Notes under the pieces: model-generated
The model's input: only the letters and a program-made list of their open reading frames with translations
Told to the model about the DNA's origin: nothing
The model's database searches: none
Translations under genes and position numbers: made by a program
Source of the DNA: Patescibacteria group bacterium
GTDB taxonomy: Bacteria; Patescibacteriota; Patescibacteriia; UBA10025; JAHIVO01
Assembly (NCBI GenBank): GCA_041650915.1
Contig: JBAZKE010000006.1
Location: 8,961-72,960, forward strand
Length of the DNA stretch: 64,000 nucleotides
Direction: 5' to 3'
Shown here: piece after piece, positions 23,458 to 61,611 of the stretch
Position numbering within the stretch: the first letter of the stretch is position 1
Layout of the letters: every line of letters starts with the position of its first letter

Positions 23458-24460
23458 ATGGTGGGGACAGGACCAAGATCATCACTACACGCAGCCCGCA
23501 GATCCCGAGACTGAAATCCCGGTGGCAGATCTGCTGCGGGAATTCGACGAGATGATCGAGATCGCGTGCCGAGACGGCACCTGGAATGTTGATCCATATC
23601 TCTTCGGCATGGCCAATGGCATGATTTTCATGCGGTCAATAGTCAGCGGCGAAGAACCTCAGTATTTGGAGGCGCCGGCCGAGTGGTCGGGCGAGTCCAG
23701 TGGGGTAGAGGCAGAATCGGATAAGCGTTCACTTGCGCGGGGTGAAACTACACGTTACGTTACCCGTGACTATCTTCGCCAATATGTAGAGTCTACCGGT
23801 GTCGATTTGGACGACATAAAGCGTCATTATGGCCTCGGACAACATTCGGCCAGTGCCCAGTACCGACGGGGTTTTGTCGACGGGCAGGATTTCGGGCATG
23901 CTATTTTAGACGACGCGGCCCAACTTGAGCATGGTACCACAGCACTACAACGTGATGTCGACCGATTAGGCTGGGACGGGGCCGTTGAGCACCAGCAAGA
24001 TTTAGGCGACGCGGCCCAGCAACGTCTGGACCCCAATGCCATCAGCAAAACCATGTGGCAAATGGGCGTGCGGGATGCCAAACTGCTCGGCCCAGGGCTT
24101 ATAACAGTCGAAGAGGCGAAAGCTAGGGCGGCCAGAAGTGTCGCCAGCACTAAACAAGAAATATTGGCAACCCTGACCTCCAAGTTTAATTTCGGCGAAC
24201 CCAACGAATTTGACACACAAATCAGCACCGAAGCGGCCTACGCGCAGGAGCAGGACGCCATGGTGGCGTGGACAGCAGTCCGGCAGTACATCGATTCCGT
24301 GCTGCGGCAGCTCCTTCCCGTCACCACGACCGAAACAGATTTCGGCATGGCCCAAACCATCCTTGGTCTCATTGAGGTGGCGTCACATGTCGGTCGTGTG
24401 CGTTGCCGATGCTCAGATCCTTGGCGACTGCATGTCGGCATCACGACGCTCGCCAAATAG
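23426..24460 (+). CDS. Hypothetical protein (344 aa)
   Basis: Long ORF. Its own ATG lacks an RBS, whereas the out-of-frame 23403 ATG has a good one. Confidence 0.5.
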   Translation: MVMFTGKPTPEWWGQDQDHHYTQPADPETEIPVADLLREFDEMIEIACRDGTWNVDPYLFGMANGMIFMRSIVSGEEPQYLEAPAEWSGESSGVEAESDKRSLARGETTRYVTRDYLRQYVESTGVDLDDIKRHYGLGQHSASAQYRRGFVDGQDFGHAILDDAAQLEHGTTALQRDVDRLGWDGAVEHQQDLGDAAQQRLDPNAISKTMWQMGVRDAKLLGPGLITVEEAKARAARSVASTKQEILATLTSKFNFGEPNEFDTQISTEAAYAQEQDAMVAWTAVRQYIDSVLRQLLPVTTTETDFGMAQTILGLIEVASHVGRVRCRCSDPWRLHVGITTLAK

Positions 24461-24717: not shown

Positions 24718-24752
24718 TTGACATTCCCACCGTTCCCTGCTATGTTGCTAGT
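24718..24752 (+). promoter_or_regulatory. Sigma70-like promoter P1 (TTGACA-17-TATGTT) driving a leaderless ATG
   Basis: -35 at 24718-24723 and -10 at 24741-24746. The ATG at 24753 lies 7 nt after the -10. Upstream TTTTCCGC extension. Confidence 0.55.
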
Positions 24753-25226
24753 ATGCCAGCCAAATCCTACTACGCATTTGCCTTTGGCAAAGCCGATTTC
24801 GAAAACAATATTTTAGTTCCTCTGAGTGCTGCGTTCCGTCATTTCTGCATGGCAGAATGGTGTAAAGCGCTCGGCACTACACACAAGTTTTTCGATCACT
24901 GGTCGGCAGAAGTCGACAATCTCACCGACACTTACCTGGAAGCTGTCGTGCAGCCAACGACGCTGCAGCCGGCTGGCAGAATTAAAGTTTATCTCCGCGT
25001 AGTTGCCCGGCTGCGCGATCAAGACGAGCACTTGCAGAACCTGGCGTTCCAGCACTATTGCAAGTCATTTCCAGAACAGCATCCGAAAACTACACGGCTG
25101 CCCAAAGTCGTGATCGACGCATTCTGGCACGACATCCATCTCCGCACCAAAGCTGCACTCGTCGACACCCGGCAGACAGGGCGCATTTGGCTATTCGAGT
25201 CTGTTTTCAGCCCGATTTCCGCTTGA
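24753..25226 (+). CDS. Hypothetical early protein, tandem paralog 1 (157 aa)
   Basis: Leaderless start. About 45% identical to the 25258..25737 product (both contain VPLxAAFRHxCxxxWCxxxGTT). Confidence 0.6.
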   Translation: MPAKSYYAFAFGKADFENNILVPLSAAFRHFCMAEWCKALGTTHKFFDHWSAEVDNLTDTYLEAVVQPTTLQPAGRIKVYLRVVARLRDQDEHLQNLAFQHYCKSFPEQHPKTTRLPKVVIDAFWHDIHLRTKAALVDTRQTGRIWLFESVFSPISA

Positions 25227-25257
25227 CATTCCCACCGTTCTCTGCTACTCTGGCTAT
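25223..25257 (+). promoter_or_regulatory. Sigma70-like promoter P2 (TTGACA-17-TACTCT) driving a leaderless ATG
   Basis: Near-identical copy of P1 (TTTCCGCTTGACATTCCCACCGTTCyCTGCTA). ATG at 25258. Confidence 0.55.
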
Positions 25258-25737
25258 ATGACTACTGTATGCCGTATTGGCTTCGCATTCTCAAAAACTG
25301 AACTCGAGAACCAGATGTTGGTCCCGCTGCGCGCCGCATTCCGCCACTATTGTTTGGTCGCGTGGTGTCGGCTACAGGGCACCACATATCAGTACTACGA
25401 CCACTGGCAGGCGGAGGTTGTGAATCTTACTGCAGCGTTTTTCGATGCGCTGACGACGCCTTCAACACTTAAACCTGCCGGTAGAATTAGAGCATACGAG
25501 CACGTCGTCGCAGGAATCCGAGATAATACGATTGTGTTCGAGGAAGCAGCACGCGACCACTATTTGGACGCCTTTCCCGAGCAAGAAGACAAGATTAAGA
25601 ACAAGCGTTTGGACAAAGCTACATTGGATAAATTCTGGATTTTATTGAACGCGCGTGCGAAAAAGAACCTCGTCGCGAACAAACTCGTGGGCAAACGCTG
25701 GCAGTTCGAATCAGTTTTTGGTCCTATCGACGCTTAG
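25258..25737 (+). CDS. Hypothetical early protein, tandem paralog 2 (159 aa)
   Basis: Leaderless start. Paralog of the 24753..25226 gene. Confidence 0.6.
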   Translation: MTTVCRIGFAFSKTELENQMLVPLRAAFRHYCLVAWCRLQGTTYQYYDHWQAEVVNLTAAFFDALTTPSTLKPAGRIRAYEHVVAGIRDNTIVFEEAARDHYLDAFPEQEDKIKNKRLDKATLDKFWILLNARAKKNLVANKLVGKRWQFESVFGPIDA

Positions 25738-27482: not shown

Positions 27483-28241
27483 ATGTTGCTTTCGGGCGTG
27501 TACAAGATTCAAAATACAGTTAATGGCAAACAGTACATAGGTAGTTCTGTGAATATACGAGAACGCTGGCAAGACCACGAAAGAAACCTGCGTGCCGGTA
27601 CGCACGCTAACGCCAGGCTGCAACACGCCTGGAATAAATATGGGGCAGACGCGTTTATATTTTCTATCATAGAGCTAGTCTCTCCAACCAAAGATGCTTT
27701 AATTGCACGCGAGCAAGCGTGGATAGATTTGCACAATACTGCTCATCGGGATGTTGGGTACAATATAAGTCCGACGGCAGGATCTTCTCTGGGCACCAAA
27801 TTTTCTGCGGAAACTTGTGCGCGCATGAGTAAAGCACAAAAGGGCAAAGTGCTCACGGAAGAGCACAAAAGAAAGATAGGCGCAGCGGCAAAAGGCAGAA
27901 AAGCGTCGGACGAAACTAAAATAAAGATTGGAAACGGTAGTCGAGGCAGAAAGCACACAGAGGAATGTAAAGCTAGAATCGGAGCTGCGTCCGCTGCTTG
28001 GACACGTGGGCCTGTATCGGACGAGACGCGCGCCAAACAAAGTGTAACGCGAAGAGCGAAACGATTGGGACATGGCGCCTCTAATGGCAGGGCAAAATTA
28101 ACAGAAGAACAAGTGATTGAGATCCGCAGACTTTACGCCACACGCGAATACACCAACGTTCAAATAGCGCAGCTTTTTGGCGTGTGCAAATCCACCATAG
28201 GCAGGATAGTACAGGGTAAACACTGGATTTTTGTAGCTTAA
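27483..28241 (+). CDS. GIY-YIG homing endonuclease with NUMOD3-type repeats
   Basis: GVYKIQNTVNGKQYIGSS...R...H. Repeated HKxKIG/ETKxKIG modules. AT-rich island. Confidence 0.85.
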   Translation: MLLSGVYKIQNTVNGKQYIGSSVNIRERWQDHERNLRAGTHANARLQHAWNKYGADAFIFSIIELVSPTKDALIAREQAWIDLHNTAHRDVGYNISPTAGSSLGTKFSAETCARMSKAQKGKVLTEEHKRKIGAAAKGRKASDETKIKIGNGSRGRKHTEECKARIGAASAAWTRGPVSDETRAKQSVTRRAKRLGHGASNGRAKLTEEQVIEIRRLYATREYTNVQIAQLFGVCKSTIGRIVQGKHWIFVA

Positions 28242-43041: not shown

Positions 43042-43269
43042 ATGTCACAAAAACTTCGTAAGTGCATTCAACTCGGTAAAGTGGTGGTTCGTAATCGGAC
43101 TTCCGGCGAAGTCATTGTGTATTACCCACTGCCAGACGGCTCGCCAGCGACTGCCACCATTTCCCCCGGTGGAAGTATGGAACTAGCGCCCAAGTTCACC
43201 ACGCCGGCCATGTTGATGAAATCCAACCTGGAAGAGCTGGCCCGCAAAGGCCACGTGACTTTCATATAA
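43042..43269 (+). CDS. Hypothetical small protein (75 aa)
   Basis: RBS AAAGGA. Confidence 0.45.
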   Translation: MSQKLRKCIQLGKVVVRNRTSGEVIVYYPLPDGSPATATISPGGSMELAPKFTTPAMLMKSNLEELARKGHVTFI

Positions 43270-44150
43270 TGCAATGTCACATCCATGACAATGTTCCCGC
43301 CAGTGCAGATTTATTAGTCATTCACCACATTAAACCGCAAGCATTCGGCGGGCAAGACATACCTGAAAACCGTGTGATGCTGTGCGCATCATGTCACGAC
43401 GTTCTGCATAAAGCAGAACATAAATTATCCAAAGGAAAGACCGGAGAAGCACTAGATATTATCGATCGCTTTTTACCGAATCAGACTGCCAGGCAACAGC
43501 GTCTCCGTGCACTGATGAATTCTGTGGCCTCGGCGCGTAAGGCTTGGAAGACCAAGTCGAATGTTGTTCCGGAGGCTCAGGGTAAAGTTGACGACACTGT
43601 AATCGTACAGCTAAATCTTCCGATTTGGTTACACCATAGGCTAAAAACAACCGCGCAAGATCAACAGGTTGGGTTGTACAAGCTCTGCCTCCGGGTGCTG
43701 GAGCAATATGTCGTCAAGCAAGACATGCCAACCTTGGACCCGGCTATACCCGCGGCTCCGGCACCAGAAGTAAAGTTCATCGCACCGAAGCCAAATAAAA
43801 TAATCCAGATCTGGAATGTTTTGGATAAAGCCGACGCCATGGAACTCGAAACACGAATGTTGTCCGCGGGATCGAAAGAGCGCTATTGCGAGATCATGCA
43901 AAAGGCACTCAAGCTATCCCCGTTGCCCCGCCACTTAGAAGATAAAGATTTTAGTCTGGACGACGCGTTCGGGCTGCTGACATGTGTGTTCGACAAACTT
44001 AAAAAAGCGCAAATGCGCGGAGTCGACGAACTATACTGCGGTGTACTTTTGCTGGCGCTCAAGGGTTACCCCGTTACTTTACAAATCCAGGCAGAAGCTC
44101 AGCACTATAAAACAACAAAATGGTTATTGCATTTATTTCCTGCTGCGTAA
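43269..44150 (+). CDS. HNH nuclease domain protein (293 aa)
   Basis: N-terminal HHIKPQAFGGQDIPENRVMLCASCHDVLH (HNH motif). Confidence 0.6.
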   Translation: MQCHIHDNVPASADLLVIHHIKPQAFGGQDIPENRVMLCASCHDVLHKAEHKLSKGKTGEALDIIDRFLPNQTARQQRLRALMNSVASARKAWKTKSNVVPEAQGKVDDTVIVQLNLPIWLHHRLKTTAQDQQVGLYKLCLRVLEQYVVKQDMPTLDPAIPAAPAPEVKFIAPKPNKIIQIWNVLDKADAMELETRMLSAGSKERYCEIMQKALKLSPLPRHLEDKDFSLDDAFGLLTCVFDKLKKAQMRGVDELYCGVLLLALKGYPVTLQIQAEAQHYKTTKWLLHLFPAA

Positions 44151-44183: not shown

Positions 44184-44555
44184 ATGGATACTTTTGTCTT
44201 TCGCGATGCTGTATATCGGCGTGTAATAGTTTCCCGTACGGCGGCTAGTGCCATGCAGGAGCTGCAGAGCGTTCCTCGAGATCTCACCGAGGAACAATTC
44301 GATGGCCTGTTGTGGCCGCTCGCAGAGAAGATGGTGCAGCAGTGTAGCACCAAAGATAAAGGGCCGACTACACGCGAGTGGTGCGTGTACTCTGGCGACA
44401 ACCAGCAGGGCCTACAAAGCATGCATCTTGACCGGCAAGACGCCGTAGATCATGCTTTTATGTGGTTGCAACGCTATTTCTTGACTGGCCTTCGTGGTAA
44501 CCCAAAAATCAAGAATTTCGATACTTTCCTGCAAGAATACGTGAAAAATCACTAG
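44184..44555 (+). CDS. Hypothetical protein with N-terminal hairpin tag MDTFVFRDAVYRRV
   Basis: ATG at 44184 inside the track ORF 44172..44555 (TTG start). Tag at residues 3-12. Confidence 0.5.
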   Translation: MDTFVFRDAVYRRVIVSRTAASAMQELQSVPRDLTEEQFDGLLWPLAEKMVQQCSTKDKGPTTREWCVYSGDNQQGLQSMHLDRQDAVDHAFMWLQRYFLTGLRGNPKIKNFDTFLQEYVKNH

Positions 44556-44581
44556 CTTCGATCTTTCCCGCCCCTTTCTGC

Positions 44582-44610
44582 TTGACTTCCTCCGAATAAC
44601 TGAATATAGT
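44582..44610 (+). promoter_or_regulatory. Sigma70-like promoter P4 (TTTCTGCTTGACT-17-TATAGT)
   Basis: -35 at 44582-44587 and -10 at 44605-44610. Followed by a 14-bp inverted repeat in the leader. Confidence 0.5.
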
Positions 44611-44675
44611 GGGTGCTGTTGCGCTGCCGGCGGATCCATTAATTTTGCCGCTGAATACCGGCCGCCGGCAGCGCA

Positions 44676-45029
44676 ATGCCTACAACCGAAAGGAAACCAA
44701 TGTCCCTAATCATCGATCCAACTGCACAAAATGACACACCTTCTCCTGCTTCGGAACCAGAACAAACCCCAAACGCTGATGGAATGATGACCCCAGTCAT
44801 CATGCTGTTCTGTCCCAGATGCCATGCACAGGCCGCCATGGAAGTCAGGCCTATGATGCTACTGCTTAGGTCCGATGGTGTCTTGGTAGTGGAGGAGAAG
44901 GAAGGTGAGGAGATCATCGGCCAGGCATTTGTCGTCGGGATGTCGCAGCCGCAGGCCAAGTGCCCGCAGTGTTCTTCGGGTGGAATCATCGTGCCGAACG
45001 GCGGCATGCCGCCGAATCTGAAGTTATAA
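44676..45029 (+). CDS. Small zinc-ribbon protein (CPRCH...CPQCS)
   Basis: Track ORF. An internal ATG about 24 nt downstream has a better RBS (AAAGGAAACCA). Confidence 0.5.
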   Translation: MPTTERKPMSLIIDPTAQNDTPSPASEPEQTPNADGMMTPVIMLFCPRCHAQAAMEVRPMMLLLRSDGVLVVEEKEGEEIIGQAFVVGMSQPQAKCPQCSSGGIIVPNGGMPPNLKL

Positions 45030-45166
45030 CCTCTCGGATTGGTTGGTGTAGTCCTAATAATTACAGACACTTACATTTATTGTAAAAACACCTTATCTGT
45101 ATTGACTGGCACGGTAACATTTACCGTGACCATAAACCACGGACAGGTGTCCGCGAGAGGTTTGTA

Positions 45167-45928
45167 ATGTATTTGATTTTTTCTTTGCTCCTGCTCATTC
45201 AGCAGGACACGCCAGTGACGGTTTCGGCAGGAGCCCGCGGGTTTGTTCCAAGCCTGGTGGCTTCCTCGCGTCCTCCCAGTAAGGCCGACATCGTCAAATC
45301 CATTGAAGCTCTCAAAGCGAAAGGGGTTCCAGTTTCTCCCGAAAAAGTAAGCAAATATGCGGACGCAATTCTAACCGCGTCGCGCCAGCACAGCATCGAT
45401 CCATATTTGCTCGTGGCCATCGCCCGCGTAGAAAGTAATTTTACGGCAGCAGTGCGTAAAGATATCCGCTGCTCTTTGCCTCGTCAAGGTTTCTGTTCCC
45501 AAGACTGTGGCGTTACCCAGCAAAACTTTTCCGGTGCACCGAAGTGGGTTAAATTTCGGTGTGCTCAAGTGCAGAAAGATTATAAAGAATCGTTCATGCT
45601 TGCGGCCGAGGAACTCGCCAAGCACACGGAATGGTGTCGAGAGAAAATTCACCTCGACAGAGTGCCCGAACGCTGCATACTTAATCGGTACAACGGCGGG
45701 CCTATGTACCGAAAGGAAGAACAGTGCAAGCGTCTGTACAGCCAATGCTCGGCATTGCCCGAGGACCGAAAGCAAAAGTGCCTGTTTGGTCGGCGGCGCT
45801 GCATGATTATCGCAACGTACTGGACACGAGTTCTGTGCTTCCACCAAGCAGCGCGCACCGCAACTACACCTACGCGCGACTGCCGGTGGTGCTGGAGCGT
45901 CGACTCCATCGATAAACATTTTGAGTAA
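45167..45928 (+). CDS. Lytic transglycosylase (SLT domain) with N-terminal membrane or signal segment
   Basis: SIDPYLLVAIARVESNF (SLT catalytic region, E in ESN). Hydrophobic N-terminus MYLIFSLLLLIQQ. RBS GAGAGG. Confidence 0.7.
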   Translation: MYLIFSLLLLIQQDTPVTVSAGARGFVPSLVASSRPPSKADIVKSIEALKAKGVPVSPEKVSKYADAILTASRQHSIDPYLLVAIARVESNFTAAVRKDIRCSLPRQGFCSQDCGVTQQNFSGAPKWVKFRCAQVQKDYKESFMLAAEELAKHTEWCREKIHLDRVPERCILNRYNGGPMYRKEEQCKRLYSQCSALPEDRKQKCLFGRRRCMIIATYWTRVLCFHQAARTATTPTRDCRWCWSVDSIDKHFE

Positions 45929-45970
45929 GGTGAAGAGTTTTATCTTAGCCTAATTTCTTACGTAAAGGTA

Positions 45971-46132
45971 TGATTTCCATGGAAAATTCACCAGAAAATA
46001 AGCAGCAGACAGCAGACTCTGCACCACCGCTGCCGGTCAAAACGGCTGGCCCGGTGTGTCAGCTTGGCTTGCTACCTCCGCCTCCCCCATCACCCTGCAT
46101 AGAGCATCTCTATTTCGACTGCGATTTCTAGC
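45971..46132 (+). CDS. Possible small Pro-rich protein (53 aa)
   Basis: Short ORF with AAAGGTATGA upstream similar to the next gene's leader. Below the ORF-track cutoff. Weak. Confidence 0.25.
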
Positions 46133-46144
46133 AAAACTTAATAG

Positions 46145-46162
46145 CACGTTATCTTTTAGTAG
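46145..46162 (+). promoter_or_regulatory. Conserved CACGTTA...TTTAGTAG promoter-like element (copy 4)
   Basis: CACGTTATCTTTTAGTAG upstream of the 46183 gene. A partial copy lies at about 45943. Confidence 0.35.
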
Positions 46163-46182
46163 TTCTTACGAAAGGTATAATC

Positions 46183-46737
46183 ATGTCCGTACCTAAATTT
46201 ATCCGCGTCGCCGGTCAATTATATCGTTTGGCTGAGCCACCGCCGCAGTTCACACAGGACAAAGACGAGCTTGGGAAGCTCGAGGCAGATCTCGAGATGG
46301 CAGAATCTATTGGCGCTACCGAAAACGCCAAGCAGATTAGGCAAAAAATTGAACAGCTAAAAACAGCTTTCGCACCCAGAGATAAATATTATGCTGACAT
46401 GCCCGGCGCGAAGTACGTAATTGCACTTTCTCCCGAAGAAGAAGAGATTCTATTCCAGATCCATGAGGGACAGGGCGACGCCGTCTATGCAGTCGCGAGC
46501 CGCAGTCATAGCGCTGGGTTAACTTGGGTCACTGAGGACGAACTCTCGACCGTAGTGTCTCGTCTTGCCTGGCTGCTCAGTGACGCGACCATCACAGCGG
46601 AGATGTCGGAACAAGAGCAAGAGACTGCCGCCTCGCTTCTCTATGAACTAGAAAACCTATCGTCCGGCAGCACTGGAATTGAGTATCCTCCTGGTGTCAT
46701 CCGGGAATTTGATTTGCAGACCCCACCCAGCGCTTAG
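46183..46737 (+). CDS. Hypothetical protein (184 aa) with N-terminal hairpin tag MSVPKFIRVAGQLYRL
   Basis: RBS AAAGGT. Tag at residues 5-15. Confidence 0.6.
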   Translation: MSVPKFIRVAGQLYRLAEPPPQFTQDKDELGKLEADLEMAESIGATENAKQIRQKIEQLKTAFAPRDKYYADMPGAKYVIALSPEEEEILFQIHEGQGDAVYAVASRSHSAGLTWVTEDELSTVVSRLAWLLSDATITAEMSEQEQETAASLLYELENLSSGSTGIEYPPGVIREFDLQTPPSA

Positions 46738-46800
46738 TTTCATCTGTTTCCTGCTTTCTACCTTATATCTAGGTAGATTTGCGTCTACCGGAGAACCTCC

Positions 46801-48519
46801 ATGCCTGAAATTATTTATCGCGGCCAGCGCTATGTACTCCACACGGCAGCCGAAACCTATGCCCCGCCTGCCCCGCCGGCCAATTGGGAAACAAATAAGC
46901 AAGAATATATCACCAAAGTCATAGCCGATTTGGAGGCTTTGGGCGAACGCGTTTATACTTTGGGTATTGAAAGCGACGTTATCGCGGAGCAACCCGGAGA
47001 TGTCGACGCAGAAGTAACGCAAACCAAAGTAAAACAAGTCCGGCACGAGCTTAAACTCCAAGAAGCCGCCGGTAATGCCGAAGCTGTGGCTGCTCTCAAG
47101 GCGCAACTCGACGCACTGGGAATTAAGAAATCTACCACGGGTTTGGCATTGGATAACTTGGCCAAGGTAATTGACAATACAATCGCGGCAGTTGAACTCG
47201 GAGAGTATCTAATCAAAAACCCCACGGTGCCTGCAAAACGTGCGGTAAAAATTCCTATTACTGAAGTCGTACCAGAGCTTACTCGTATCGTTGATCAGTG
47301 GGAAAAGTTTGCGCTATCGAGTCGGCCGGCGTCCGATGTGCCCGATCAGCAGCGCAAAAAAGAAGAAGTCCTGGGCTTCCCTAAATTCGTGAAGGTACAG
47401 CTTGACTTCATCAATAAACACATTGTAGAAGCTACTGAATTAGTCAACCGTGCTGCAGTGACCGAAGGCCAGGATCCCGAGGAAAGCGCACGTATCCAAG
47501 CTGCGCAAGCCGCACTTCCTAGTTTTATGTACCGGCTCAAGGTTGTGAATGAATCCATCGCCAAAGGCAAATATGTAATTTCCAACCGTGTCGACCTGCT
47601 GGCTGAGATGGAAGATGCGCGGAAAGCCGCAGAAACTGCTGGCGACGCAGCACAGGCTGAAGAACTGCAGAAGCGTATCGATTGGGTGCAAGGTACTCAA
47701 ACAACCGATAAGGACCTGAAAGATCGATACATTAAAGACATTGTGAAAGAGTTGTTTACAGAGTTTAAAGCGCACTGGCTGGTGGCCAAGGCGCAAAAGG
47801 CTAAAGAAAAAGCCGAAGCTGACGCGAAGGCTAAGGCAGATAAGCCCGAAAAAGAAAAGAAACCGAAGGAACCCAAACCCGACAATCTCATGGAGGTAGT
47901 AAAAGAACTCCTGGCTACGCTGGAGGATATCAAAAATAAACAGCCTATGTTCTTGCAAACCGCAAAAGCGCGCGAGGGTTTCGATAAACTCGTGCAGGAC
48001 ACCATCGCGGTTGGAAAGGCTGTAGACGCTGGCGCCGCTTCTGTGACGCTGTCGTCTGGGGAATACCCAATCAAAGAGGCCGTGAAGCTGGTGCAAGACG
48101 GTATGCGACAGTACCGCAGCATGATGAAGCGAGAGTTTGAGCCCGGGGCCAGAGCGCAAGAGAAGCAAGTCGGTATGGGCAAGAGTCTGGAAGATCTAGA
48201 TAAAAAGATTGCGGAGATTGATCAGGCCATTTCTGCGGTTCGCAGCCAGCAGAGTCGTGCGTCTGCAGGTAGCCTGGAGTTGCTAGAACAAATCAAGCGA
48301 AAACCGGATCGTGCAAGCAAACTGCCTTTGATGGCCCGGCGAGATAAAATAGAGCACGAAGTAGCAGAGCTTACTAAGCAAATCGACACCCTGCGCAAAG
48401 AGCGTAGTTCTGTGAGTCTAGCGCGTGACAATCTGCTTAAAAGCGTACGGCCAGGCCCACAGGCCACACCCGAAGTTACCAAACCAACGGGTCCCATTTA
48501 CCAGACACCGGAGTTCTAA
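46801..48519 (+). CDS. Coiled-coil K/E-rich protein (572 aa) with N-terminal hairpin tag MPEIIYRGQRYVL
   Basis: RBS GGAGAA. Long heptad-rich stretches and a KAKEKAEADAKAKADKPEKEKKPKEPKP segment. Confidence 0.65.
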   Translation: MPEIIYRGQRYVLHTAAETYAPPAPPANWETNKQEYITKVIADLEALGERVYTLGIESDVIAEQPGDVDAEVTQTKVKQVRHELKLQEAAGNAEAVAALKAQLDALGIKKSTTGLALDNLAKVIDNTIAAVELGEYLIKNPTVPAKRAVKIPITEVVPELTRIVDQWEKFALSSRPASDVPDQQRKKEEVLGFPKFVKVQLDFINKHIVEATELVNRAAVTEGQDPEESARIQAAQAALPSFMYRLKVVNESIAKGKYVISNRVDLLAEMEDARKAAETAGDAAQAEELQKRIDWVQGTQTTDKDLKDRYIKDIVKELFTEFKAHWLVAKAQKAKEKAEADAKAKADKPEKEKKPKEPKPDNLMEVVKELLATLEDIKNKQPMFLQTAKAREGFDKLVQDTIAVGKAVDAGAASVTLSSGEYPIKEAVKLVQDGMRQYRSMMKREFEPGARAQEKQVGMGKSLEDLDKKIAEIDQAISAVRSQQSRASAGSLELLEQIKRKPDRASKLPLMARRDKIEHEVAELTKQIDTLRKERSSVSLARDNLLKSVRPGPQATPEVTKPTGPIYQTPEF

Positions 48520-48522
48520 ACT

Positions 48523-49233
48523 ATGGCCAACGCAGTTAAATTCAACGGTGCGCTTTATGTAATTGCAGGCAAACCTGCGGCCGGAACTCCACGTAACACC
48601 ACTTGGACGAAAAAACAGTTCAAGCACTACACATCACCAGTTAAAATGCCGGGTGTGCGCACCGACGTCATCCAAGGAGACGAAGCTGCTGTACAAACAG
48701 AAATTAATCAGCTTAGGCGGGACATCGCAAAAGCTAAAGCTAGTTATGACAGCTTACTAGATCAGCGCAATCAGCAGTACGATAAACGAACTATTTCTCT
48801 CGAGGCGACGCGCTCGCCGGAGCGTAATCGGCTGATCCGGGAATCAGAGCAAAAGATACTCGAACTAGATGCAAAACTAGACCGAATGGAAAAAGGCATC
48901 GAGCGCCTGATTGAAACACTAAACGAAAAACTAAATGCTCAGGTTTCCGAGACACCAAGCCCAGCAGATCCAGGAGGTCTCGTGGTCGAATATGACCCCA
49001 TCAAGGTGCGCAAGCAGCAAGAGCTGCAGCGTGATTTGGCACAACTGCAGTCACACAAAGAAAAGCTATTAGCTGTGCAGCAAAAGTTCCTGCGGGATAA
49101 GTCTCAGCCGATGAGCGAAACTGCGGATAAACTCATCAAAAAAGATCTGCTCGACACCGACGACATGATCGCACAAAAGCAGCACATGCTCAGGGCTCTG
49201 TCGGCGCCTGCAGACCCAATGCTCAAGGATTAA
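48523..49233 (+). CDS. Coiled-coil protein (236 aa) with degenerate N-terminal tag MANAVKFNGALYVI
   Basis: RBS GGAG. Tag is weaker (no R after the Y). Confidence 0.55.
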   Translation: MANAVKFNGALYVIAGKPAAGTPRNTTWTKKQFKHYTSPVKMPGVRTDVIQGDEAAVQTEINQLRRDIAKAKASYDSLLDQRNQQYDKRTISLEATRSPERNRLIRESEQKILELDAKLDRMEKGIERLIETLNEKLNAQVSETPSPADPGGLVVEYDPIKVRKQQELQRDLAQLQSHKEKLLAVQQKFLRDKSQPMSETADKLIKKDLLDTDDMIAQKQHMLRALSAPADPMLKD

Positions 49234-49235
49234 TC

Positions 49236-49973
49236 ATGACGCCTAAATATATTCGTGTAGCTGGTAAACTATATCGTGCCTGCCCCTGTACTGAAGTTCC
49301 TGCTGCGGAGCATGCAGATGTAGTGCGCGAAGAACTCGAGATGCAGGGCTTTTCCGCGGTGCCATGCCAGGAACCCAAGAAAGTGTGTGTAGAGACTCCG
49401 CCAGCCCAGCCACAGATTTCGGCTCCACAACGCATTGAAACTACACAACGCTCAGCGCCGCAGTTCATTCGAGTACAAGGGCAAGTTTATAAAAAGGCGG
49501 CGGCAAATCTTCCTGCTGTTGCTGCTGGAACGCTCAAAGCGCTGAATCGCGTCAGAATGCAAATTACTGCAATTCTGGGCGAAGCCGATCGCGGGGACGA
49601 AGACCGCGCGTCGGACACCGTCTGTATTTCCAATGTTCCAGGTGAGTTTCAGGTGCTGTCGGCCGATGCGCTGGGTGAGCGCGCACGTGAGGCGCTGGAA
49701 CTACTGTACAATTCTATCGCGCTGTGGGAGCGCAGCGCTACCGTCGCGTTGGCGGAGAATGAGATCATGCAGCACGCGTACGTGCTGCTCAATGACGTGC
49801 ACGGCGCAGTGTCTGAGGCCGTTGAATCCGGCATTAATGCGCAGCCTGGATTTTTCTGTGTAGAGCGCGAAAAGTTCTTCGGTCTGGTATCGGATATCTC
49901 TGCGTGCATGCAAGCCTTCACGAAGCTAGAGCGGATGTTGACCCAGAAATACAGCGTAGCCTCCGTCTCTTAG
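49236..49973 (+). CDS. Hypothetical protein (245 aa) with two hairpin tags (N-terminal KYIRVAGKLYR; internal QFIRVQGQVYKK at 49461-49496)
   Basis: RBS AAGGAT. Two tag copies. Confidence 0.6.
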   Translation: MTPKYIRVAGKLYRACPCTEVPAAEHADVVREELEMQGFSAVPCQEPKKVCVETPPAQPQISAPQRIETTQRSAPQFIRVQGQVYKKAAANLPAVAAGTLKALNRVRMQITAILGEADRGDEDRASDTVCISNVPGEFQVLSADALGERAREALELLYNSIALWERSATVALAENEIMQHAYVLLNDVHGAVSEAVESGINAQPGFFCVEREKFFGLVSDISACMQAFTKLERMLTQKYSVASVS

Positions 49974-49974
49974 C

Positions 49975-50002
49975 TTGCATTCCTGCCAGTTTCTGCTATA
50001 GT
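49975..50002 (+). promoter_or_regulatory. Sigma70-like promoter P6 (TTGCAT-16-TATAGT) driving a leaderless ATG
   Basis: The ATG at 50009 lies 6 nt after the -10. Confidence 0.45.
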
Positions 50003-50008
50003 GTTGAC

Positions 50009-50593
50009 ATGTCACAGCGCCTCCAATTCCGTGGGCACAACTACCGCCTGTACACTCCGAAAAGCCAACGCCGTGAATTTCGCATGGCGGTTGCGGGTCT
50101 ATGGCGCGACGTCACGACAGTAATTCGGTATCTCGCAGAAAAAGGAATTGATCCAGTAGTTGTCGGCGGCCTCGCCGTGCAACACCACGGCGTAGAGCGT
50201 CTGACCGAAGATATCGATATCTTGATCTCCAGAGCTGCATACACGAAGCTCGTTGAGGAAGGCAAGATTAAGTTCGGGCAGCTGAAAATCATCCCCGGCA
50301 CGGAAATCGATGTGCTGACCGAGGGAAAGGACAACAACCCCGATCCTGAATTCATTCGAGCCGGAGATTCTAATTTCCCGACGTTTGCCGGTTTGATCTA
50401 CCTGAAGCTGAAAGCGAACCGACTTAAAGACCGAGGCGATGTCGCGGAGCTACTTAAAGCCCACGAGTTCAATATCGAGGAACAGCAGGAAATCCTAACG
50501 TTCCTGCCAGAAGAGCTAAAAATTAGATTTTTAGCCATTTGGGACGAAGCCGGGCAAGAGCACGACAAACGCAAGCAAATGGTGGAAGAATAA
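50009..50593 (+). CDS. Nucleotidyltransferase-fold (AbiEii-like) protein (194 aa) with N-terminal tag MSQRLQFRGHNYRLY
   Basis: Leaderless ATG. VVGGLAVQHHGVERLTEDIDILI matches the GG...G..R.T.DiD minimal NTase signature. Confidence 0.6.
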   Translation: MSQRLQFRGHNYRLYTPKSQRREFRMAVAGLWRDVTTVIRYLAEKGIDPVVVGGLAVQHHGVERLTEDIDILISRAAYTKLVEEGKIKFGQLKIIPGTEIDVLTEGKDNNPDPEFIRAGDSNFPTFAGLIYLKLKANRLKDRGDVAELLKAHEFNIEEQQEILTFLPEELKIRFLAIWDEAGQEHDKRKQMVEE

Positions 50594-51252
50594 TGCAACG
50601 TGTGTTTTCAACGCTGAACGATCTCATCGCGCAAGGCGTTATTACCGATTATGCTCTTGGTGGCTCCGTTGCGTTCATGTTTTACTGCCAGCCGTTCCTG
50701 ACCAACGACACCGATTTCTTTGTACAAATGCCGGGAAGCGGACTGCTAGTCTCGCTCTCGCCAATCTACGCTTACGCGGCAGAACATAATTTTCCTCTGG
50801 ACCATGAGCACATCGTTGTCGATGACGAGCCGGTGCAAATCATTCCAGCGCCCTCACCACTCTACGACGAAGCAATCGCTACAGCGCAGCAGCGGACAAT
50901 CGAAGGACAGAATGTAAAGGTCATGCTGCCGGAATATCTCGTCTGCACGGCACTGAATGCCGGCCGAATGAAAGATTTCGCAAAAATCGAAAAACTGCTC
51001 GAGGAAGCAGAAGTCGATCTGAGTAAACTAAAGGAACTCATTACCCGGTTTCAGCTATCTGCGCAGTGGAAGCGCTACCTTGTCGCCATTGGAGTTACTG
51101 ATCCAGCTTTTCTGCATTTGGCGGAAACAAAAGCAACCTGGCGCCGTGCACAAGCCGATAAACGGATGGAAGACAAACTACAAGAAATAAAAAAGCTGCG
51201 CACCAGAGTCAGCGCAATCCGCTATAGAAACGCACTGTACAGACCTGTTTAA
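50593..51252 (+). CDS. Second nucleotidyltransferase-fold-like protein (219 aa) with C-terminal tag IRYRNALYRPV
   Basis: ATG overlaps the upstream stop, with GGAAGA RBS. ALGGSVAFMFYCQPFLTNDTDFFV. The track's overlapping start at 50539 was rejected. Confidence 0.55.
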   Translation: MQRVFSTLNDLIAQGVITDYALGGSVAFMFYCQPFLTNDTDFFVQMPGSGLLVSLSPIYAYAAEHNFPLDHEHIVVDDEPVQIIPAPSPLYDEAIATAQQRTIEGQNVKVMLPEYLVCTALNAGRMKDFAKIEKLLEEAEVDLSKLKELITRFQLSAQWKRYLVAIGVTDPAFLHLAETKATWRRAQADKRMEDKLQEIKKLRTRVSAIRYRNALYRPV

Positions 51253-51335: not shown

Positions 51336-52079
51336 GTGCGTTTATTGTGCGGAGGCACGAAGCAGCCGCAGTACTGCTGTAAAACGGCAGCACGCCGCCA
51401 GTGCGCGGTGCGGAGAACACCGGTGCTTACCAGCGATAAAACTGTAGATGGACGTTTGATTACTAGTTTGTCCCCTTGTAGTGAACGCAGAGTTTCTGTC
51501 AAATGCGACACGTGTGGCGTGATCAACACCACTAGTTATGCCAACTACAACCGGGCGCAAAAGACGACGCACAATGGATCCGGGCGAACAACGTGTAGAA
51601 AATGTGCAGTAACAAAATCGGCGCTAGCACGCAAAGGCAAACCACGCGCACCTAAACCAAAACTGCCGCCAGAACAATTAGGGGCAAACCACAAAAGTTG
51701 GCGTGGCGGCAGGTACATCGACGCAAACAATTATGTAATGGTACACCAGCCAGACAGAAGTAAAGCCAGAACAACCGGCTGGGCGCACTATCGTAAAGAA
51801 CATATCGTCGTTATGGAACAGCACATAGGCCGACGCCTGTTGCCCAATGAAACTGTACACCATATAGACGGAAACAAACAAAATAATGTGCTGTCCAATC
51901 TGTATTTAGTACACTCGCACGCAGAACACCGCAACGCGCACACGTCCCTGCAGCAAATAGGTTATGCGCTCATTAGAACCGGTATGCTTACGTTTGACCT
52001 ACAAAATGGGCAGTACATCGTGGGCGAAGCGCTTCAGCACCTGTTAGACCTTGCTAAAACAACTGAAGGGAACACCTGA
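51336..52079 (+). CDS. HNH homing endonuclease (247 aa)
   Basis: VHHIDGNKQNNVLSNLYLVHSHAEHRNAH (HNH motif). N-terminal CxxC...CxxC. AT-rich. Start codon uncertain. Confidence 0.65.
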   Translation: MRLLCGGTKQPQYCCKTAARRQCAVRRTPVLTSDKTVDGRLITSLSPCSERRVSVKCDTCGVINTTSYANYNRAQKTTHNGSGRTTCRKCAVTKSALARKGKPRAPKPKLPPEQLGANHKSWRGGRYIDANNYVMVHQPDRSKARTTGWAHYRKEHIVVMEQHIGRRLLPNETVHHIDGNKQNNVLSNLYLVHSHAEHRNAHTSLQQIGYALIRTGMLTFDLQNGQYIVGEALQHLLDLAKTTEGNT

Positions 52080-54325: not shown

Positions 54326-55225
54326 ATGACTACACCAAATAAAATCCGAGTTCGCGGTGACGTGTACGAACTCGTGAAAAACGTAGCGCCGCTGGCGCAA
54401 ATGGACCTCGCCGACGAGATGTCCCAAGATATGCGGTTGGCCCAAAATGAGTTCGTGACGACGGTAGAGAACGTCATCGATGCCGTGGATGAAATCGATC
54501 CGCGCGGCCTTGCATCTCCCATCGCCGGAATGGCCGCGCCAATCGGCAAGATATTCACCAAAGCGCAAGGAATCCTCAAACTATTTCAACACGACAAAAT
54601 CAGCGTGGAACTCTACAAATTGGAGTACGGTCGTTGGTACTTGGTACACGAGCTGGTGCGTGTGGCCTATCACTTTGCGCGCCAAGATTACTACAAGCGA
54701 GACAACAAACTAGATATTGACACCGTGGTCAGCGCACTTGACTACGACAAAACACTAAAAGAACTGCGGCAAGACCACGAGCGCTATTACGCGGCAGCCG
54801 CATCTAAAATACTGCTGCGCTTCATTAAGGCCGGCAGTGAGGATGACACCCCTGTCGTACAGGATTCGAAAACAAGGCGTGAGCTAGACCTCAGTGCCGT
54901 GACGATACAGCGAATTAAGGACACCATTAAGCACGTGCTGCAGGCTGCACTTGACCTCGGAACCGCCACGGCCGAAACCCTGGACAAATACGACAGCGCT
55001 GCTCGGCATCTCGCGGCAGCTACAAATCTGGCTAAAGAAATCGCCAAGGCGCCGCAGATGTTGATGAAACCTGAACCCCTGACTCCGCCAGAGCACAAAG
55101 AGCGCATCGATACAGACGCTACAATAAGTAAATCCGTTGAGGACGAGCCCACCGCCATTGATCCGCGCGTAAAGCACGGCACCTACCTTCACTACGCCGG
55201 AAAAACCTACCGTCCACTCACGTAG
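54326..55225 (+). CDS. Hypothetical protein (299 aa) with hairpin tag at both termini (N: NKIRVRGDVYEL; C: YLHYAGKTYRPLT)
   Basis: RBS CAGGAGA. Tag-like peptide at residues 6-16 and in the last 13 residues. Confidence 0.6.
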   Translation: MTTPNKIRVRGDVYELVKNVAPLAQMDLADEMSQDMRLAQNEFVTTVENVIDAVDEIDPRGLASPIAGMAAPIGKIFTKAQGILKLFQHDKISVELYKLEYGRWYLVHELVRVAYHFARQDYYKRDNKLDIDTVVSALDYDKTLKELRQDHERYYAAAASKILLRFIKAGSEDDTPVVQDSKTRRELDLSAVTIQRIKDTIKHVLQAALDLGTATAETLDKYDSAARHLAAATNLAKEIAKAPQMLMKPEPLTPPEHKERIDTDATISKSVEDEPTAIDPRVKHGTYLHYAGKTYRPLT

Positions 55226-58893: not shown

Positions 58894-59148
58894 CCAAAGT
58901 TCAATTTGAGTCAACCACCCCTCCTACATGGAGAGACGCGAAAAGGTCTCTGGTTGACTAGGGAACATCGAAAGGTGTAGCAGTTGGTCGAGAGAAATAC
59001 ATACACACCCGTGGACGCTCCTCAAATCTACGGCTCTGTGGATCTGTCGTTAAAAAGCTCAAGGGGTAGAGCTGGTGCGCAGATCTTAAAAACCTCTTCC
59101 AACAATCCCGATGAGGCTCTCACTTCCCTTTCGAGGGAAGGGCAGGAC
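58894..59148 (+). ncRNA. Candidate IscB-associated omega RNA scaffold and left-end structured region
   Basis: About 250-nt non-coding stretch immediately 5' of the IscB PLMP start. Dense nested hairpins (58909-58959 AGTCAACCA...TGGTTGACT with an inner GAGAC/GTCTC stem; GCTC...GAGC about 59080; CTTCCC-TTTCGA-GGGAAG 59120-59137). The reading frame is formally open through it. Confidence 0.3.
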
Positions 59149-60906
59149 TTGAGAGTACCTGCCGTTTATGTTCTTAATCAACGCGGCGAGCCATTAATGC
59201 CCACAACGCCAAGGAAAGCACGAATGCTTCTCCGGGAAGGAAAGGCCAAGGTAAAGACTAGAACTCCGTTTGTAATTCAATTGCTTGTTCCAACCGGAGA
59301 AACCAAACGGCCCATCGTTTTGGGAGTAGACGCTGGATACCTCCACGTTGGCCTGTCGGCCGTAACGGAAAATAAAGAAGTATACGCCGCGGAAATCACG
59401 CTTAGGTCTGATATTGTAGCCTTAATTTCGACTCGTAAAATGTATCGACAAACACGAAGAAGTAGAAAAACCTGGTACAGACAGCCGAGATGGTTGAATC
59501 GAGTAAAAAGCAAACCCAAAGGCTGGCTAGCTCCGTCAATTCAGCACAAGCTCAATAGCCATGTAAAACTGGTCGAGCGCGTTAAACGAATTCTTCCCAT
59601 TACCTCAGTAATAGTGGAAATAGCTGCTTTTGACATTCAGAAAATCAAAAATCCAGATATACAGGGAGTAGAGTACCAAGAAGGTGTGCAAAAAGGTTTT
59701 ACAAACGTGCGAGAATATGTGCTGTACAGAGATGGACATAAATGCCAAGCGTGCAAAGGAAAATCCAAAGACAAAATTTTGAAAGTAGTGTTGAACGCCC
59801 ACCACATAGAGTCTAGAAAAACAGGCGGAAATCGACCTGATAATCTCGTTACACTCTGTGCTGAGTGTCATAAGCTTTACCATAACGGTACCGTAAACAT
59901 TAAAACTAAACCCAGCAAAAGTTTCAAAGCCGAAGCATTCATGACGATGGTGTGGCGACGATTGGTTGAACTATTAGGTGCCGCAATCCGATATGGCTAC
60001 GAAACCAAACAAGCTAGAGCAGACGCTGGACTTAACAAAAGTCATGTTAATGACGCTTTTGTCGTCGCGGGCGGATGCTACCAGAACAGAACAGTTCCAT
60101 TTTTAGTAAAACAAGTTAGGAAACAGAACCGAAAACTTTACAATGGACCACACTCCGGTCGGCGCAGCACCGCTGCTCGATTTGTTCGTGGGTTCCAACG
60201 ATACGATAAAGTCCTGTACAAAGGAGTGGAATGTTTTGTGTTTGGAAGAAGAACCAACGGTTATTTCGACGTCCGAGATCTATACGGTGCTAGAATACAT
60301 GACGGCGCAAAAGCCAAGGACTGTGTTTTGCTGGAAACAGCAAGCACTTTATTAACCTGTACCCTAAGAGGTGGCACTCCCCTGCCTAAAGGCAGAGGTC
60401 TCCATGCCGAAGCCCAAATGAAAATCAGAACTGGTTTTGTCAGCAATTCGAGTAGTTCTAGCTTTGTCGTGCAAATCCGGCAGAGTCCGTGGGAAAAATC
60501 CGAGCCCAAATTGTTGCTTTCGCCGGAGCAACTCGCATGGCTAGAGTCTCAAGGATTTCGGTACTGTGCGCACACGTATCCCTCGCGAGTTGAGGAAACT
60601 GGGATTCTGGAAATGTACCCTGGCGCCGAAACGCCTGAAGCAGCAGAAAATATGTGGCTGTCGGTGATTTGTAACCAAGACGAAGTCATCGACGGTTTGG
60701 TCCGGCAGGGCATTCCATTTTGTGCGTCATGCCACTACGGACACGAGACTGTGGTTTGGCGCGCTGGCGATAAGCGCGTTTATGCATTGCCAAATTTAGG
60801 GCACGAATACGAAACATACCAAGAGGAGAAACTTTTCAAAGCTAAAGTCAAAGTAGCATCACAAACCGTAGCAAGCATCAAGAAAAACGGGTGTAATCTC
60901 GTTTAG
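59149..60906 (+). CDS. iscB: IscB-like RNA-guided nuclease (PLMP, RuvC-I, Arg-rich bridge, RuvC-II, HNH, RuvC-III, TID), fused in-frame to a C-terminal MKIRTGFVSNSSSSSF-family module
   Basis: VYVLNQRGEPLMPTTPRKARMLLREGKAKVKTRTPFVIQLL. LGVDAGYLHVGLS (catalytic D at about 59329). RRSRKTWYRQPRW. VIVEIAAFDIQ. HNH: CQAC...HHIESRK...N...LCAECHKLYH. SHVNDAFVVAGG. TID: FQRYDKVLYKGVECFVFGRRTNGYFDVRDLYG. TTG start at 59149 with GAGGGAAGGG RBS. The track ORF is open from 58984. Confidence 0.8.
   Translation: MRVPAVYVLNQRGEPLMPTTPRKARMLLREGKAKVKTRTPFVIQLLVPTGETKRPIVLGVDAGYLHVGLSAVTENKEVYAAEITLRSDIVALISTRKMYRQTRRSRKTWYRQPRWLNRVKSKPKGWLAPSIQHKLNSHVKLVERVKRILPITSVIVEIAAFDIQKIKNPDIQGVEYQEGVQKGFTNVREYVLYRDGHKCQACKGKSKDKILKVVLNAHHIESRKTGGNRPDNLVTLCAECHKLYHNGTVNIKTKPSKSFKAEAFMTMVWRRLVELLGAAIRYGYETKQARADAGLNKSHVNDAFVVAGGCYQNRTVPFLVKQVRKQNRKLYNGPHSGRRSTAARFVRGFQRYDKVLYKGVECFVFGRRTNGYFDVRDLYGARIHDGAKAKDCVLLETASTLLTCTLRGGTPLPKGRGLHAEAQMKIRTGFVSNSSSSSFVVQIRQSPWEKSEPKLLLSPEQLAWLESQGFRYCAHTYPSRVEETGILEMYPGAETPEAAENMWLSVICNQDEVIDGLVRQGIPFCASCHYGHETVVWRAGDKRVYALPNLGHEYETYQEEKLFKAKVKVASQTVASIKKNGCNLV
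60418..60906 (+). other. C-terminal extension of the IscB ORF, equal to paralog A of the MKIRTGFVSNSSSSSF family (163 aa), with internal ATG
   Basis: Begins MKIRTGFVSNSSSSSF, like the two genes downstream. In the IscB frame with no intervening stop. Could instead be a separate or coupled gene. Confidence 0.5.
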
Positions 60907-60914
60907 GAGGAAAC

Positions 60915-61283
60915 ATGAAGATCAGAACCGGGTTCGTAAGTAATTCCAGCAGCTCCAGCTTTTTGATCTGGGGCATCACAGTAGACACGTCGGAGTTTCA
61001 GAAAGAAATTCCCGTAAGAGATGAAGACGGGGAAGACTGCGAGGAAGAGAGCCCGTACGATGTCGCGGAGCGGCTTGAGTCCGAATACGGTGACATCGTG
61101 CGGTTTGCTTATGAAAACGACATCCTATATCTCGGTCGGTGCCCTTCAACTTGCGGCCTAGACGAGACCATGCGGAAGTTCCAGCAGCGCGTGGAAACCG
61201 AGGTGAAAGCCATGGCTGAGAAAGAAGGCGTAGCTCTGGGAGACGTGGAATTCGGGTGGCTCGAGGAAGCCTGGCACGACTGA
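60915..61283 (+). CDS. Small acidic protein, MKIRTGFVSNSSSSSF family paralog B (122 aa)
   Basis: Strong RBS TAGGAGGAAAC. The N-terminal 20 aa are conserved with A and C. Homologous to C over its full length (CxxxC.DETMxxFxxRVET...FGW...AW). Confidence 0.65.
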   Translation: MKIRTGFVSNSSSSSFLIWGITVDTSEFQKEIPVRDEDGEDCEEESPYDVAERLESEYGDIVRFAYENDILYLGRCPSTCGLDETMRKFQQRVETEVKAMAEKEGVALGDVEFGWLEEAWHD

Positions 61284-61293: not shown

Positions 61294-61611
61294 ATGAAAA
61301 TCAGAACCGGTTTTGTAAGTAACTCGAGTAGTTCAAGCTTTTTGATTTGGGGCACCTTTGTCGAGGTAGACAAATTCGGCGAGGAATTCGATCGCGATGA
61401 AGTCGAAGGCGACATCGTGCACTCCGCCGGGCCCGACGACGACTATTACGTTTACGTCGGACGTGTGCCTAAAGAGTGTCGTGATGACGAAACCATGGGG
61501 CAATTCAAAGCCCGCGTCGAGACCGACGCCAGAGCGTTCCTGGCTGAGCAAAAAGTCGACGCGACAAATCTGAAATTTGGATGGCATTCGGCCGCGTGGT
61601 ACGACGGATAG
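61294..61611 (+). CDS. Small acidic protein, MKIRTGFVSNSSSSSF family paralog C (105 aa)
   Basis: Strong RBS TGAGGAGGACAAA. Paralog of B. Confidence 0.65.
   Translation: MKIRTGFVSNSSSSSFLIWGTFVEVDKFGEEFDRDEVEGDIVHSAGPDDDYYVYVGRVPKECRDDETMGQFKARVETDARAFLAEQKVDATNLKFGWHSAAWYDG

Follow-up and report, generated by a model that had tools for sequence, protein, structure and literature searches.

Two overlapping genes for small nucleotidyltransferase-like proteins, each carrying a copy of the same short peptide at one end, raise the question of whether they form a functional pair and what such enzymes would do for a phage. The genes, called ORF1 and ORF2 here (open reading frames 1 and 2), lie at 50009-50593 and 50593-51252 on the plus strand of a 64,000-nucleotide stretch of contig JBAZKE010000006.1. 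That whole stretch is the window in what follows, and its positions are the coordinates given unless another locus is named. A first-pass annotation of the sequence had described the products as a tandem pair of AbiEii-like nucleotidyltransferases tagged at opposite termini, and had suggested that the tags might join them or that they might form a counter-defence or toxin-antitoxin-like module.

The answer that we favour, with confidence somewhat above even, is that these are two independently acquired, stand-alone nucleotidyltransferases, ORF1 probably acting on RNA 3′ ends and ORF2 being of uncertain competence, with both docked through the peptide tag. The locus would then hold two different enzymes from the MenT1/DUF2204 branch of the Pol-beta-like superfamily that are not partners of each other.

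Fold and active sites

Judged from conservation, both reading frames are real, conserved genes. ORF1 encodes 194 amino acids (ATG at 50009, TAA at 50591-50593) and ORF2 encodes 219 (ATG at 50593, TAA at 51250-51252), and both start codons are consistent with the N-termini of homologues (45-72% identity). ORF1 has 18 homologues at 42-72% identity; ORF2 has seven at 54-67% and approximately two dozen more distant ones. All are metagenomic. Three alignments were used: A1, the close ORF1 family (19 members); A4, ORF1 with 41 more distant relatives; and A3, the ORF2 family (31 sequences). An exhaustive profile search with the ORF1 family reached 5071 cluster representatives at E ≤ 1e-3, only 10 of them at E ≤ 1e-30, and this large family consists of stand-alone proteins of approximately 170-200 amino acids.

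AlphaFold2 (AF2) models built from the family alignments reached a predicted local distance difference test (pLDDT) score of 91.8 for ORF1 and 92.9 for ORF2. When these models were compared with the PDB using Foldseek, the top match of each was MenT1 (8an4, 8an5 and 8rr5), with probability 1.0, a template-modelling (TM) score of approximately 0.5 and E values of 4e-5 (ORF1) and 8e-7 (ORF2). The next matches of both models, ANT(2″)-Ia, TM1012 and JHP933, are all nucleotidyltransferases, and probability was again 1.0 for the first two. A nucleotidyltransferase fold, which had been set beforehand as the point on which the proposal could fail, was thus recovered for both proteins from models with pLDDT above 91. 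The label ‘AbiEii-like’ proved right at superfamily level, since the depositors of MenT1 place it among AbiEii/AbiGii-family toxins; as a family label it is roughly correct, and on sequence and model ORF1 would be better called MenT1-like than canonical AbiEii, and ORF2 a DUF2204 protein.

Sequence profiles separate the two proteins further. The A4 profile aligns to MenT1 nearly full length (E 2.7e-14, profile positions 20-165), and the ORF2 profile aligns in the N-terminal motif only (E 0.046). Against the DUF2204 cut-off of 20.3 bits, ORF1 scores 21.3 (partial, profile positions 3-45) and ORF2 scores 20.6 (partial, profile positions 101-167). The family is matched by 14 of the 19 ORF1-family members (best 9.5e-5) and by 20 of the 31 ORF2-family members (best 7.6e-8). 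Below cut-off, ORF1 has weak matches to NTP_transf_5, AbiEii and DUF6036. A recent duplication of one gene was rejected as the origin of the pair: ORF1 and ORF2 find each other at E 4.1 in BLASTP and only remotely in hhalign (E 8e-4).

Both proteins had been said to match the signature GG...G..[RS].T.D.D. The literal string matches neither, because the spacing differs and ORF2 lacks the G and R at those places; what both do carry is the canonical motif hG[GS]-x(9-13)-[ST]xDxD, which is invariant or nearly so in the two families.

In ORF1 the nucleotidyltransferase core, delimited by the AF2 model and the MenT1 match, spans residues ~20-194. Its catalytic motif, G53-G54...R64-L-T66-E-D68-I-D70, is encoded at 50165-50218 (plus strand), with D101, K133, D141 and D144 further on. 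G53-G54 align with G26-G27 of MenT1 and T66, D68 and D70 with T39, D41 and D43, at identical spacing; K133, D141 and D144 align with K137, D149 and D152. (Numbering in the MenT1 PDB chains is one lower than in the papers.) In the A4 profile alignment D101 falls on the Asp of the MenT1 strand ‘VVVDLL’. These ORF1 residues, D101 included, are all invariant in A1. The phospho-acceptor of MenT1 is T39, and its toxicity requires D41, K137 and D152 (PMC10435456, PMC11375011) and is abolished by the substitutions D41A, K137A and D152A (PMC10435456). As the active-site residues are aligned and invariant, ORF1 is predicted to be catalytically competent in the manner of MenT; at the level of sequence it is a relative within the MenT1 family with an intact catalytic set.

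ORF2 consists of three parts: a DUF2204-type core (residues 1-~165), a basic helical extension (166-206, isoelectric point (pI) 10.6) that is specific to phage members, and the C-terminal tag. Its cellular relatives, of ~165 amino acids, have neither the extension of ~55 residues nor the tag. The ORF2 motif, G23-G24-S25...P34-F-L-T37-N-D39-T-D41, is encoded at 50659-50715 (plus strand). G24, T37, D39 and D41 are nearly invariant over the 31 sequences despite a mean column identity of 27%, and for this reason we take the nucleotide/metal site to be retained. E93, E114, K127 and D142 are nearly invariant as well, E93 and E114 being candidates to stand in for the third carboxylate. Three further positions of the catalytic set have diverged. 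In a profile-profile alignment of A1 with A3, Q82, A120 and K131 of ORF2 stand opposite D101, K133 and D144 of ORF1, so that A120 and K131 occupy the places of K137 and D152 in MenT1; these substitutions are conserved in the ORF2 family, and Q82 is nearly invariant. From its sequence ORF2 looks like a DUF2204-type protein that preserves the nucleotide/metal site and has a different or reduced chemistry.

At one cellular locus (L004, 3022-3603) the tblastn alignment of ORF2 runs ~100 nucleotides past the called stop of a 164-amino-acid gene, which could mean that the stop was miscalled or that a C-terminal extension has decayed there.

Gene neighbourhoods of homologues

Co-occurrence of the two gene types was assessed in 23 loci around homologues with flanks of 3-10 kb, and the results refer to those flanks and not to the remainder of the same genomes. 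Each of the 23 loci held only one type, ORF1 or ORF2, and never both. There are samples in which homologues of the two types are both present; related phages come from samples 3300037067, 3300063051, 3300063112 and ERZ27256783. The surroundings of ORF1 homologues (L001, L002, L012 and L017) also differ from those of ORF2 homologues (L008, L010, L019, L021 and L023). No antitoxin-like or HEPN gene was identified beside ORF1 and ORF2, and PADLOC models matched neither protein. In the window itself no cognate antitoxin of the MenA or AbiEi type adjoins the genes: upstream, 49236-49973 encodes a tagged protein of 245 amino acids with no Pfam or PHROG match, and the downstream neighbour is an HNH endonuclease gene. 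The suggestion of a toxin-antitoxin-like or otherwise obligate two-gene module finds no support in these results, and as far as sequence comparison goes ORF1 and ORF2 are not supported as a conserved partner pair.

The nearest cellular relatives of ORF1 that a genome scan with A1 turned up are two genes in Planctomycetota metagenome-assembled genomes (MAGs). Each stands alone, flanked by housekeeping genes, and no antitoxin-like neighbour was seen. One cellular relative of ORF2 lies in a stretch rich in toxin-antitoxin genes (MazE-PIN, DUF2442), and a second carries a fused PIN domain. In two related phage contigs the regions of the ORF2 homologues hold RNA-related genes: an RNA ligase gene (PF09414) in L019 (2194-5183), and genes for the peptidyl-tRNA hydrolase PTH2 and the nucleotidyltransferase RlaP in L021 (2493-9646). 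These neighbourhoods hint at an RNA connection.

Terminal tag

The tag was defined as [ILVFM]-x-[ILVFY]-x-[GND]-x-x-Y-[RKV], located 0-6 residues after the initiator Met or ending 2-5 residues before the stop; in condensed form the motif reads [IL]-x-[VFY]-x-G-x-x-Y-[RK]. The 60 plus-strand proteins of the window gave 18 matches, 15 of them terminal, where residue shuffles gave 2.6 and 0.16, respectively. A stricter form of the pattern had zero matches on the minus (non-coding) strand of the window. The two genes were correctly described as tagged at opposite ends. ORF1 has LQFRGHNYR at residues 5-13 (50021-50047, plus strand), followed by a basic linker to residue ~20; ORF2 has IRYRNALYR at residues 209-217 (51217-51243, plus strand), two residues short of the stop. 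In the AF2 models the ORF1 tag is a low-confidence β-hairpin off the core (strands at residues 4-7 and 10-13, pLDDT 47-66), and the ORF2 tag is coil.

The motif occurs on at least a dozen unrelated proteins of the window and also in related phages. Tagged window genes include 1086-1358 (both ends), those starting at 11429, 22644, 44184, 46183, 46801 and 48523, that at 49236 (N-terminal and internal), ORF1, ORF2 and that at 54326 (both ends). In the related phage contigs L001, L002, L010, L012, L017 and L023 several proteins carry the tag, and in L008 the ORF2 homologue is tagged. Within the families the tag comes and goes: it is present in seven of the 18 ORF1 homologues and absent from the rest, and among the seven close ORF2 homologues it is conserved in four, degenerate in one and lost in two. 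In L012 the ORF1 homologue is untagged though other proteins of the same contig are tagged. At the loci of cellular ORF2 relatives (L004-L007) the tag is absent. By all these sequence patterns the tag is modular and lineage-wide, common to proteins of these phages.

Copies of the peptide IRVAGKLYR that agree in every residue differ in many of their synonymous codon choices, which indicates selection on the peptide and led us to reject a DNA repeat as the origin of the copies. The back-translated IRVAGKLYR pattern had no match in IMG/VR.

Several tagged genes deserve description. In the head-gene region, the 90-amino-acid protein of 1086-1358 has a tag at each end (MTPKFIRVAGKLYRK...ELIRVAGKLYRKVPTPA), as does the 299-amino-acid protein of 54326-55225, and the product of 49236-49973 adds an internal copy to its N-terminal one. 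By their sequence, double-tagged proteins would be suited to cross-linking or to forming a multivalent hub. Consecutive tagged genes without assigned role form a run that extends over 44184-51252 (44184, 46183, 46801, 48523, 49236, ORF1 and ORF2) and comes just after genes for a 900-amino-acid protein, an HNH endonuclease and an SLT-like transglycosylase (45167-45928, a weak Pfam match); modules of internal or ejection proteins have a similar look. At 23404-23457 a mini-ORF of 17 codons encodes a bare tag (MPTKLQYRGHVYRQANP, then the stop) and ends ...AAC CCC TGA A. In the +1 frame relative to it lies an ORF of 344 amino acids (23426-24460, …ACC CCT GAA TGG…). Slippage by +1 at CCC_UGA would yield an N-tagged protein of 344 amino acids, as would a one-nucleotide assembly error.

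Expression signals

The stop codon of ORF1 and the start codon of ORF2 have one base in common (gaaTAATGcaa), and GGTGGA lies six bases 5′ of the ORF2 ATG. This TAATG overlap bears out the earlier description of ORF2 as translationally coupled to ORF1, and the two genes are probably on one transcript.

ORF1 had also been said to be transcribed leaderless from a host-type promoter. The promoter-adjacent start is there in the sequence: a promoter-like site at 49975-50002 (plus strand) has TTGCAT (49975-49980), a 16-nucleotide spacer and the extended −10 element TGcTATAGT (hexamer 49997-50002), ending six nucleotides before the ORF1 ATG with no Shine-Dalgarno sequence. Its −35 hexamer has three matches of six, and hence the site goes unlisted by a generic sigma-70 scan. 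The same architecture occurs at three sites in the window, where 0.4 are expected, and is kept 5′ of the ORF1 homologue in L001. A leaderless ORF1 transcript from a host-type promoter is a plausible inference from these sequence features.

The other two sites precede the genes starting at 24753 and 25258. They are near-identical (24718-24755 and 25223-25260, TCCGCTTGACATTCCCACCGTTC.CTGCTA...), and each stands six nucleotides before an ATG without a Shine-Dalgarno sequence. The genes behind them (24753-25226 and 25258-25737) encode paralogues of ~158 amino acids and look leaderless, like ORF1.

Function and alternative explanations

How might such enzymes be used? ORF1 would transfer nucleoside monophosphates to the 3′ end of an RNA. 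By analogy with MenT1 its likeliest target would be the CCA end of tRNA, a default guess from homology that we hold tentatively and at less than even confidence. The enzyme would be used early in infection, from the host-type promoter, and would alter host translation or counter a host defence. ORF2 would be an enzyme with a different substrate, or else a non-canonical or inactive relative. The tag would serve as a generic docking or addressing peptide, reached in each enzyme through a basic linker, and would bring both enzymes to the partner or place of the other tagged proteins and not to each other.

Several points weigh against this account. The tRNA target is taken from the nearest characterised relative, at 18-20% identity, and the window contains no tRNA gene. 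The cores of ORF1 and ORF2 are acidic (pI 5.3 and 4.7), whereas the active site of MenT1 has a net positive charge (PMC11375011). Small enzymes of the same fold, such as ANT(2″)-Ia and LnuA, modify small molecules. The ORF1 family need not be toxic, since its Planctomycetota relatives sit alone with no antitoxin seen. ORF2 may be inactive, because the equivalents of K137 and D152 are gone and a Gln replaces the third carboxylate of ORF1. Finally, the coupling of ORF1 and ORF2 is tight in this genome and could reflect a functional link specific to this phage.

Of the other explanations, counter-defence holds up best, and we still consider it unlikely. One or both enzymes would attach nucleotides to a defence protein of the host, in the way that MNT antitoxins AMPylate HEPN toxins, or would repair or mask RNA ends attacked by host nucleases. 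The genes appear to be of early type with a host-type promoter, protein-modifying enzymes of the same fold exist (MntA is a weak match), and ORF2 relatives lie in regions with the RNA ligase, PTH2 and RlaP genes. However, those RNA-related neighbours are not adjacent and come from only two contexts, similarity to MNT proteins is poor (probability 0.25-0.35), no anti-defence family was matched and no target can be named. The same weak MntA fold matches, with no HEPN match among the neighbours, led us to reject a type VII MNT-HEPN toxin-antitoxin system.

A regulator pair fares less well and seems improbable to us. Here ORF1 would be a MenT-like toxin restrained by the co-translated, degenerate ORF2, which would, for example, bind it or trigger auto-phosphorylation at T66, the way in which MenA antitoxins act on MenT. 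The stop/start overlap, the loss of the K137 and D152 equivalents from ORF2 and the retention in ORF1 of the phospho-acceptor Thr (T66, T39 in MenT1) would fit, and the ORF2 model weakly matches the antitoxins MenA4/Rv2827c (probability 0.85) and AbiEi (probability 0.77). ORF2 matches MenT1, the toxin, five orders of magnitude better than it matches these antitoxins, though; selection maintains the G-S, T and DxD site of its family, which includes cellular members of ~165 amino acids that are free-standing. The two types were never adjacent in the 23 other loci, and PADLOC found no system.

About equally improbable is a bolder role for the tag, suggested by analogy: that ~15 otherwise unrelated proteins, both nucleotidyltransferases among them, are loaded by it into the virion or onto one viral hub that they share. 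If virion loading were true, a MenT-like enzyme working on tRNA or other RNA ends would enter with the DNA and act before phage gene expression, as a nucleotidyltransferase counterpart of T4 Alt. More remotely, the two nucleotidyltransferases might nucleotidylate the invariant tag tyrosine on the other tagged proteins.

It is very unlikely that the two proteins transfer nucleotides to small molecules, as ANT(2″)-Ia and LnuA do, or that they synthesise or degrade signalling nucleotides. ANT(2″)-Ia, LnuA, CdnC and CdnD are among the fold matches and a few ORF1-family members touch the Pfam family Aminoglyc_resit, but these structural matches are weaker than that to MenT1 (TM 0.3-0.45), neither protein has the size or the C-terminal domain of the cGAS/DncV-like nucleotidyltransferases (CD-NTases), and no resistance context and no context like that of cyclic-oligonucleotide-based antiphage signalling systems (CBASS) is present, with PADLOC silent. 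A CBASS cyclase was also rejected directly: ORF1 and ORF2 have 194 and 219 amino acids where CD-NTases have ~300, TM scores to CdnC, CdnD and CdnE are 0.26-0.31, and no effector gene is nearby.

Least probable of all is the earlier proposal that the ORF1 N-tag and the ORF2 C-tag are complementary and pair as β-strands into a two-enzyme complex: the tags are at opposite termini, that of ORF1 is modelled as a β-hairpin and the doubly tagged proteins (1086-1358 and 54326-55225) are compatible with tag-mediated cross-linking, but both tags are the same motif, found on at least a dozen other, unrelated proteins, the ORF2 tag is modelled as coil, each enzyme has tagged homologues whose surroundings lack the other, and the ORF1-type enzyme of a tag-using phage (L012) is untagged. 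Two separate enzymes sent by a generic tag to a common partner or place thus remain our preferred explanation.

Phage context and database searches

The window is phage DNA by content. Among its products are a major head protein (4446-5561; phrog_2522, E 5e-36), two paralogous virion proteins (2581 and 3611), a DUF5661 protein of 1249 amino acids, Laminin_G_3 fibre-like proteins, ThyX, an ATP-dependent ligase and a glycoside-hydrolase-like protein. The ORF1 and ORF2 products are 100% identical to proteins on a 78-kb NCBI contig labelled ‘MAG: Patescibacteria group bacterium’, and that label on a phage contig is most likely a product of binning. The contig being phage DNA and the nearest located cellular relatives of ORF1 being in Planctomycetota MAGs, the label is a doubtful guide to the host.

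Homing-type endonuclease genes are unusually many in the window, four of them HNH (one with an RRXRR domain) and one GIY-YIG with NUMOD3. They lie at 12857-14059, 27483-28241, 43269-44150, 51336-52079 and 58984-60906, with one HNH gene directly 3′ of ORF2. Two tandem genes further on (60915-61283 and 61294-61611), each with a strong GGAGG site before it, encode products whose first 20 residues are identical (MKIRTGFVSNSSSSSFLIWG); they are probably a tandem duplication.

Viral collections gave few relatives. GenBank phages had no DNA match, and no tblastn match for ORF1 or ORF2. IMG/VR held five ORF1-family loci (one close and untagged, four distant) and none for the ORF2 family, to which a metagenome scan added only three short contigs. 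BFVD gave weak matches only, to uncharacterised small jumbo-phage proteins. PHROGs gave only insignificant matches for ORF1 and ORF2 and none for their tagged neighbours, and NCBIfam gave nothing useful for the locus. Literature searches on phage-encoded AbiEii-like enzymes and on terminal targeting peptides returned nothing that explains the locus, and a search for DUF2204 found no paper mentioning it.

Comparison with known systems

Nucleotidyltransferases of the MenT/AbiEii type are known as bacterial toxins and abortive-infection effectors. The best match to both proteins among solved structures is MenT1 (Rv0078A), the tRNA nucleotidyltransferase toxin of the Mycobacterium tuberculosis MenAT1 system, which is similar in size (196 amino acids) and has the same two-lobed architecture. 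ORF1 further has in common with it the G-G...T-x-D-x-D spacing, the strand with the third Asp and the K...D...D helix motif. The differences are an identity of only 17-20%, the lack of a small MenA1-like antitoxin gene upstream of ORF1 and, in ORF2, the replacement of K137 and D152 by Ala and Lys. Unlike MenT1, the two proteins are phage-borne, terminally tagged and acidic in their cores.

DUF2204 (PF09970) is the only Pfam family that reaches cut-off for ORF1 or ORF2. Its members are nucleotidyltransferases without known function, to which the phage members add the basic extension of ~55 residues and the tag. AbiEii/DUF1814 (PF08843) comprises the toxins of AbiE abortive-infection systems and shares its superfamily branch with MenT; 15 of the 19 ORF1-family members touch its model weakly. 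ORF1 itself scores 14.5 bits against a gathering threshold of 22.5, however, and ORF2 has no match; both proteins are shorter than the 238-position model and have no AbiEi partner.

An intact MenT1-like enzyme in a phage without an antitoxin, beside a divergent enzyme of the same fold, suggests that phages reuse such enzymes for host takeover or counter-defence. The tag, the more unusual element, ties both enzymes to a larger, unexplained system of tagged phage proteins. ORF1 and ORF2, as assayable enzymes, could be reporters of tag function or handles on it.

Short end-peptides common to otherwise unrelated proteins of one virus or compartment have precedents in the capsid-targeting sequence of T4 internal proteins, the cargo-loading peptides of encapsulins and the clamp-binding tails of T4 proteins. 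By analogy the tag resembles these as a short end-peptide on otherwise unrelated proteins. It differs from them in showing no sequence resemblance and in being N-terminal, C-terminal, at both ends or internal. What is new here, set against all these systems, is a set of antitoxin-less, phage-borne MenT1- and DUF2204-type enzymes, each fused to a lineage-specific terminal peptide.

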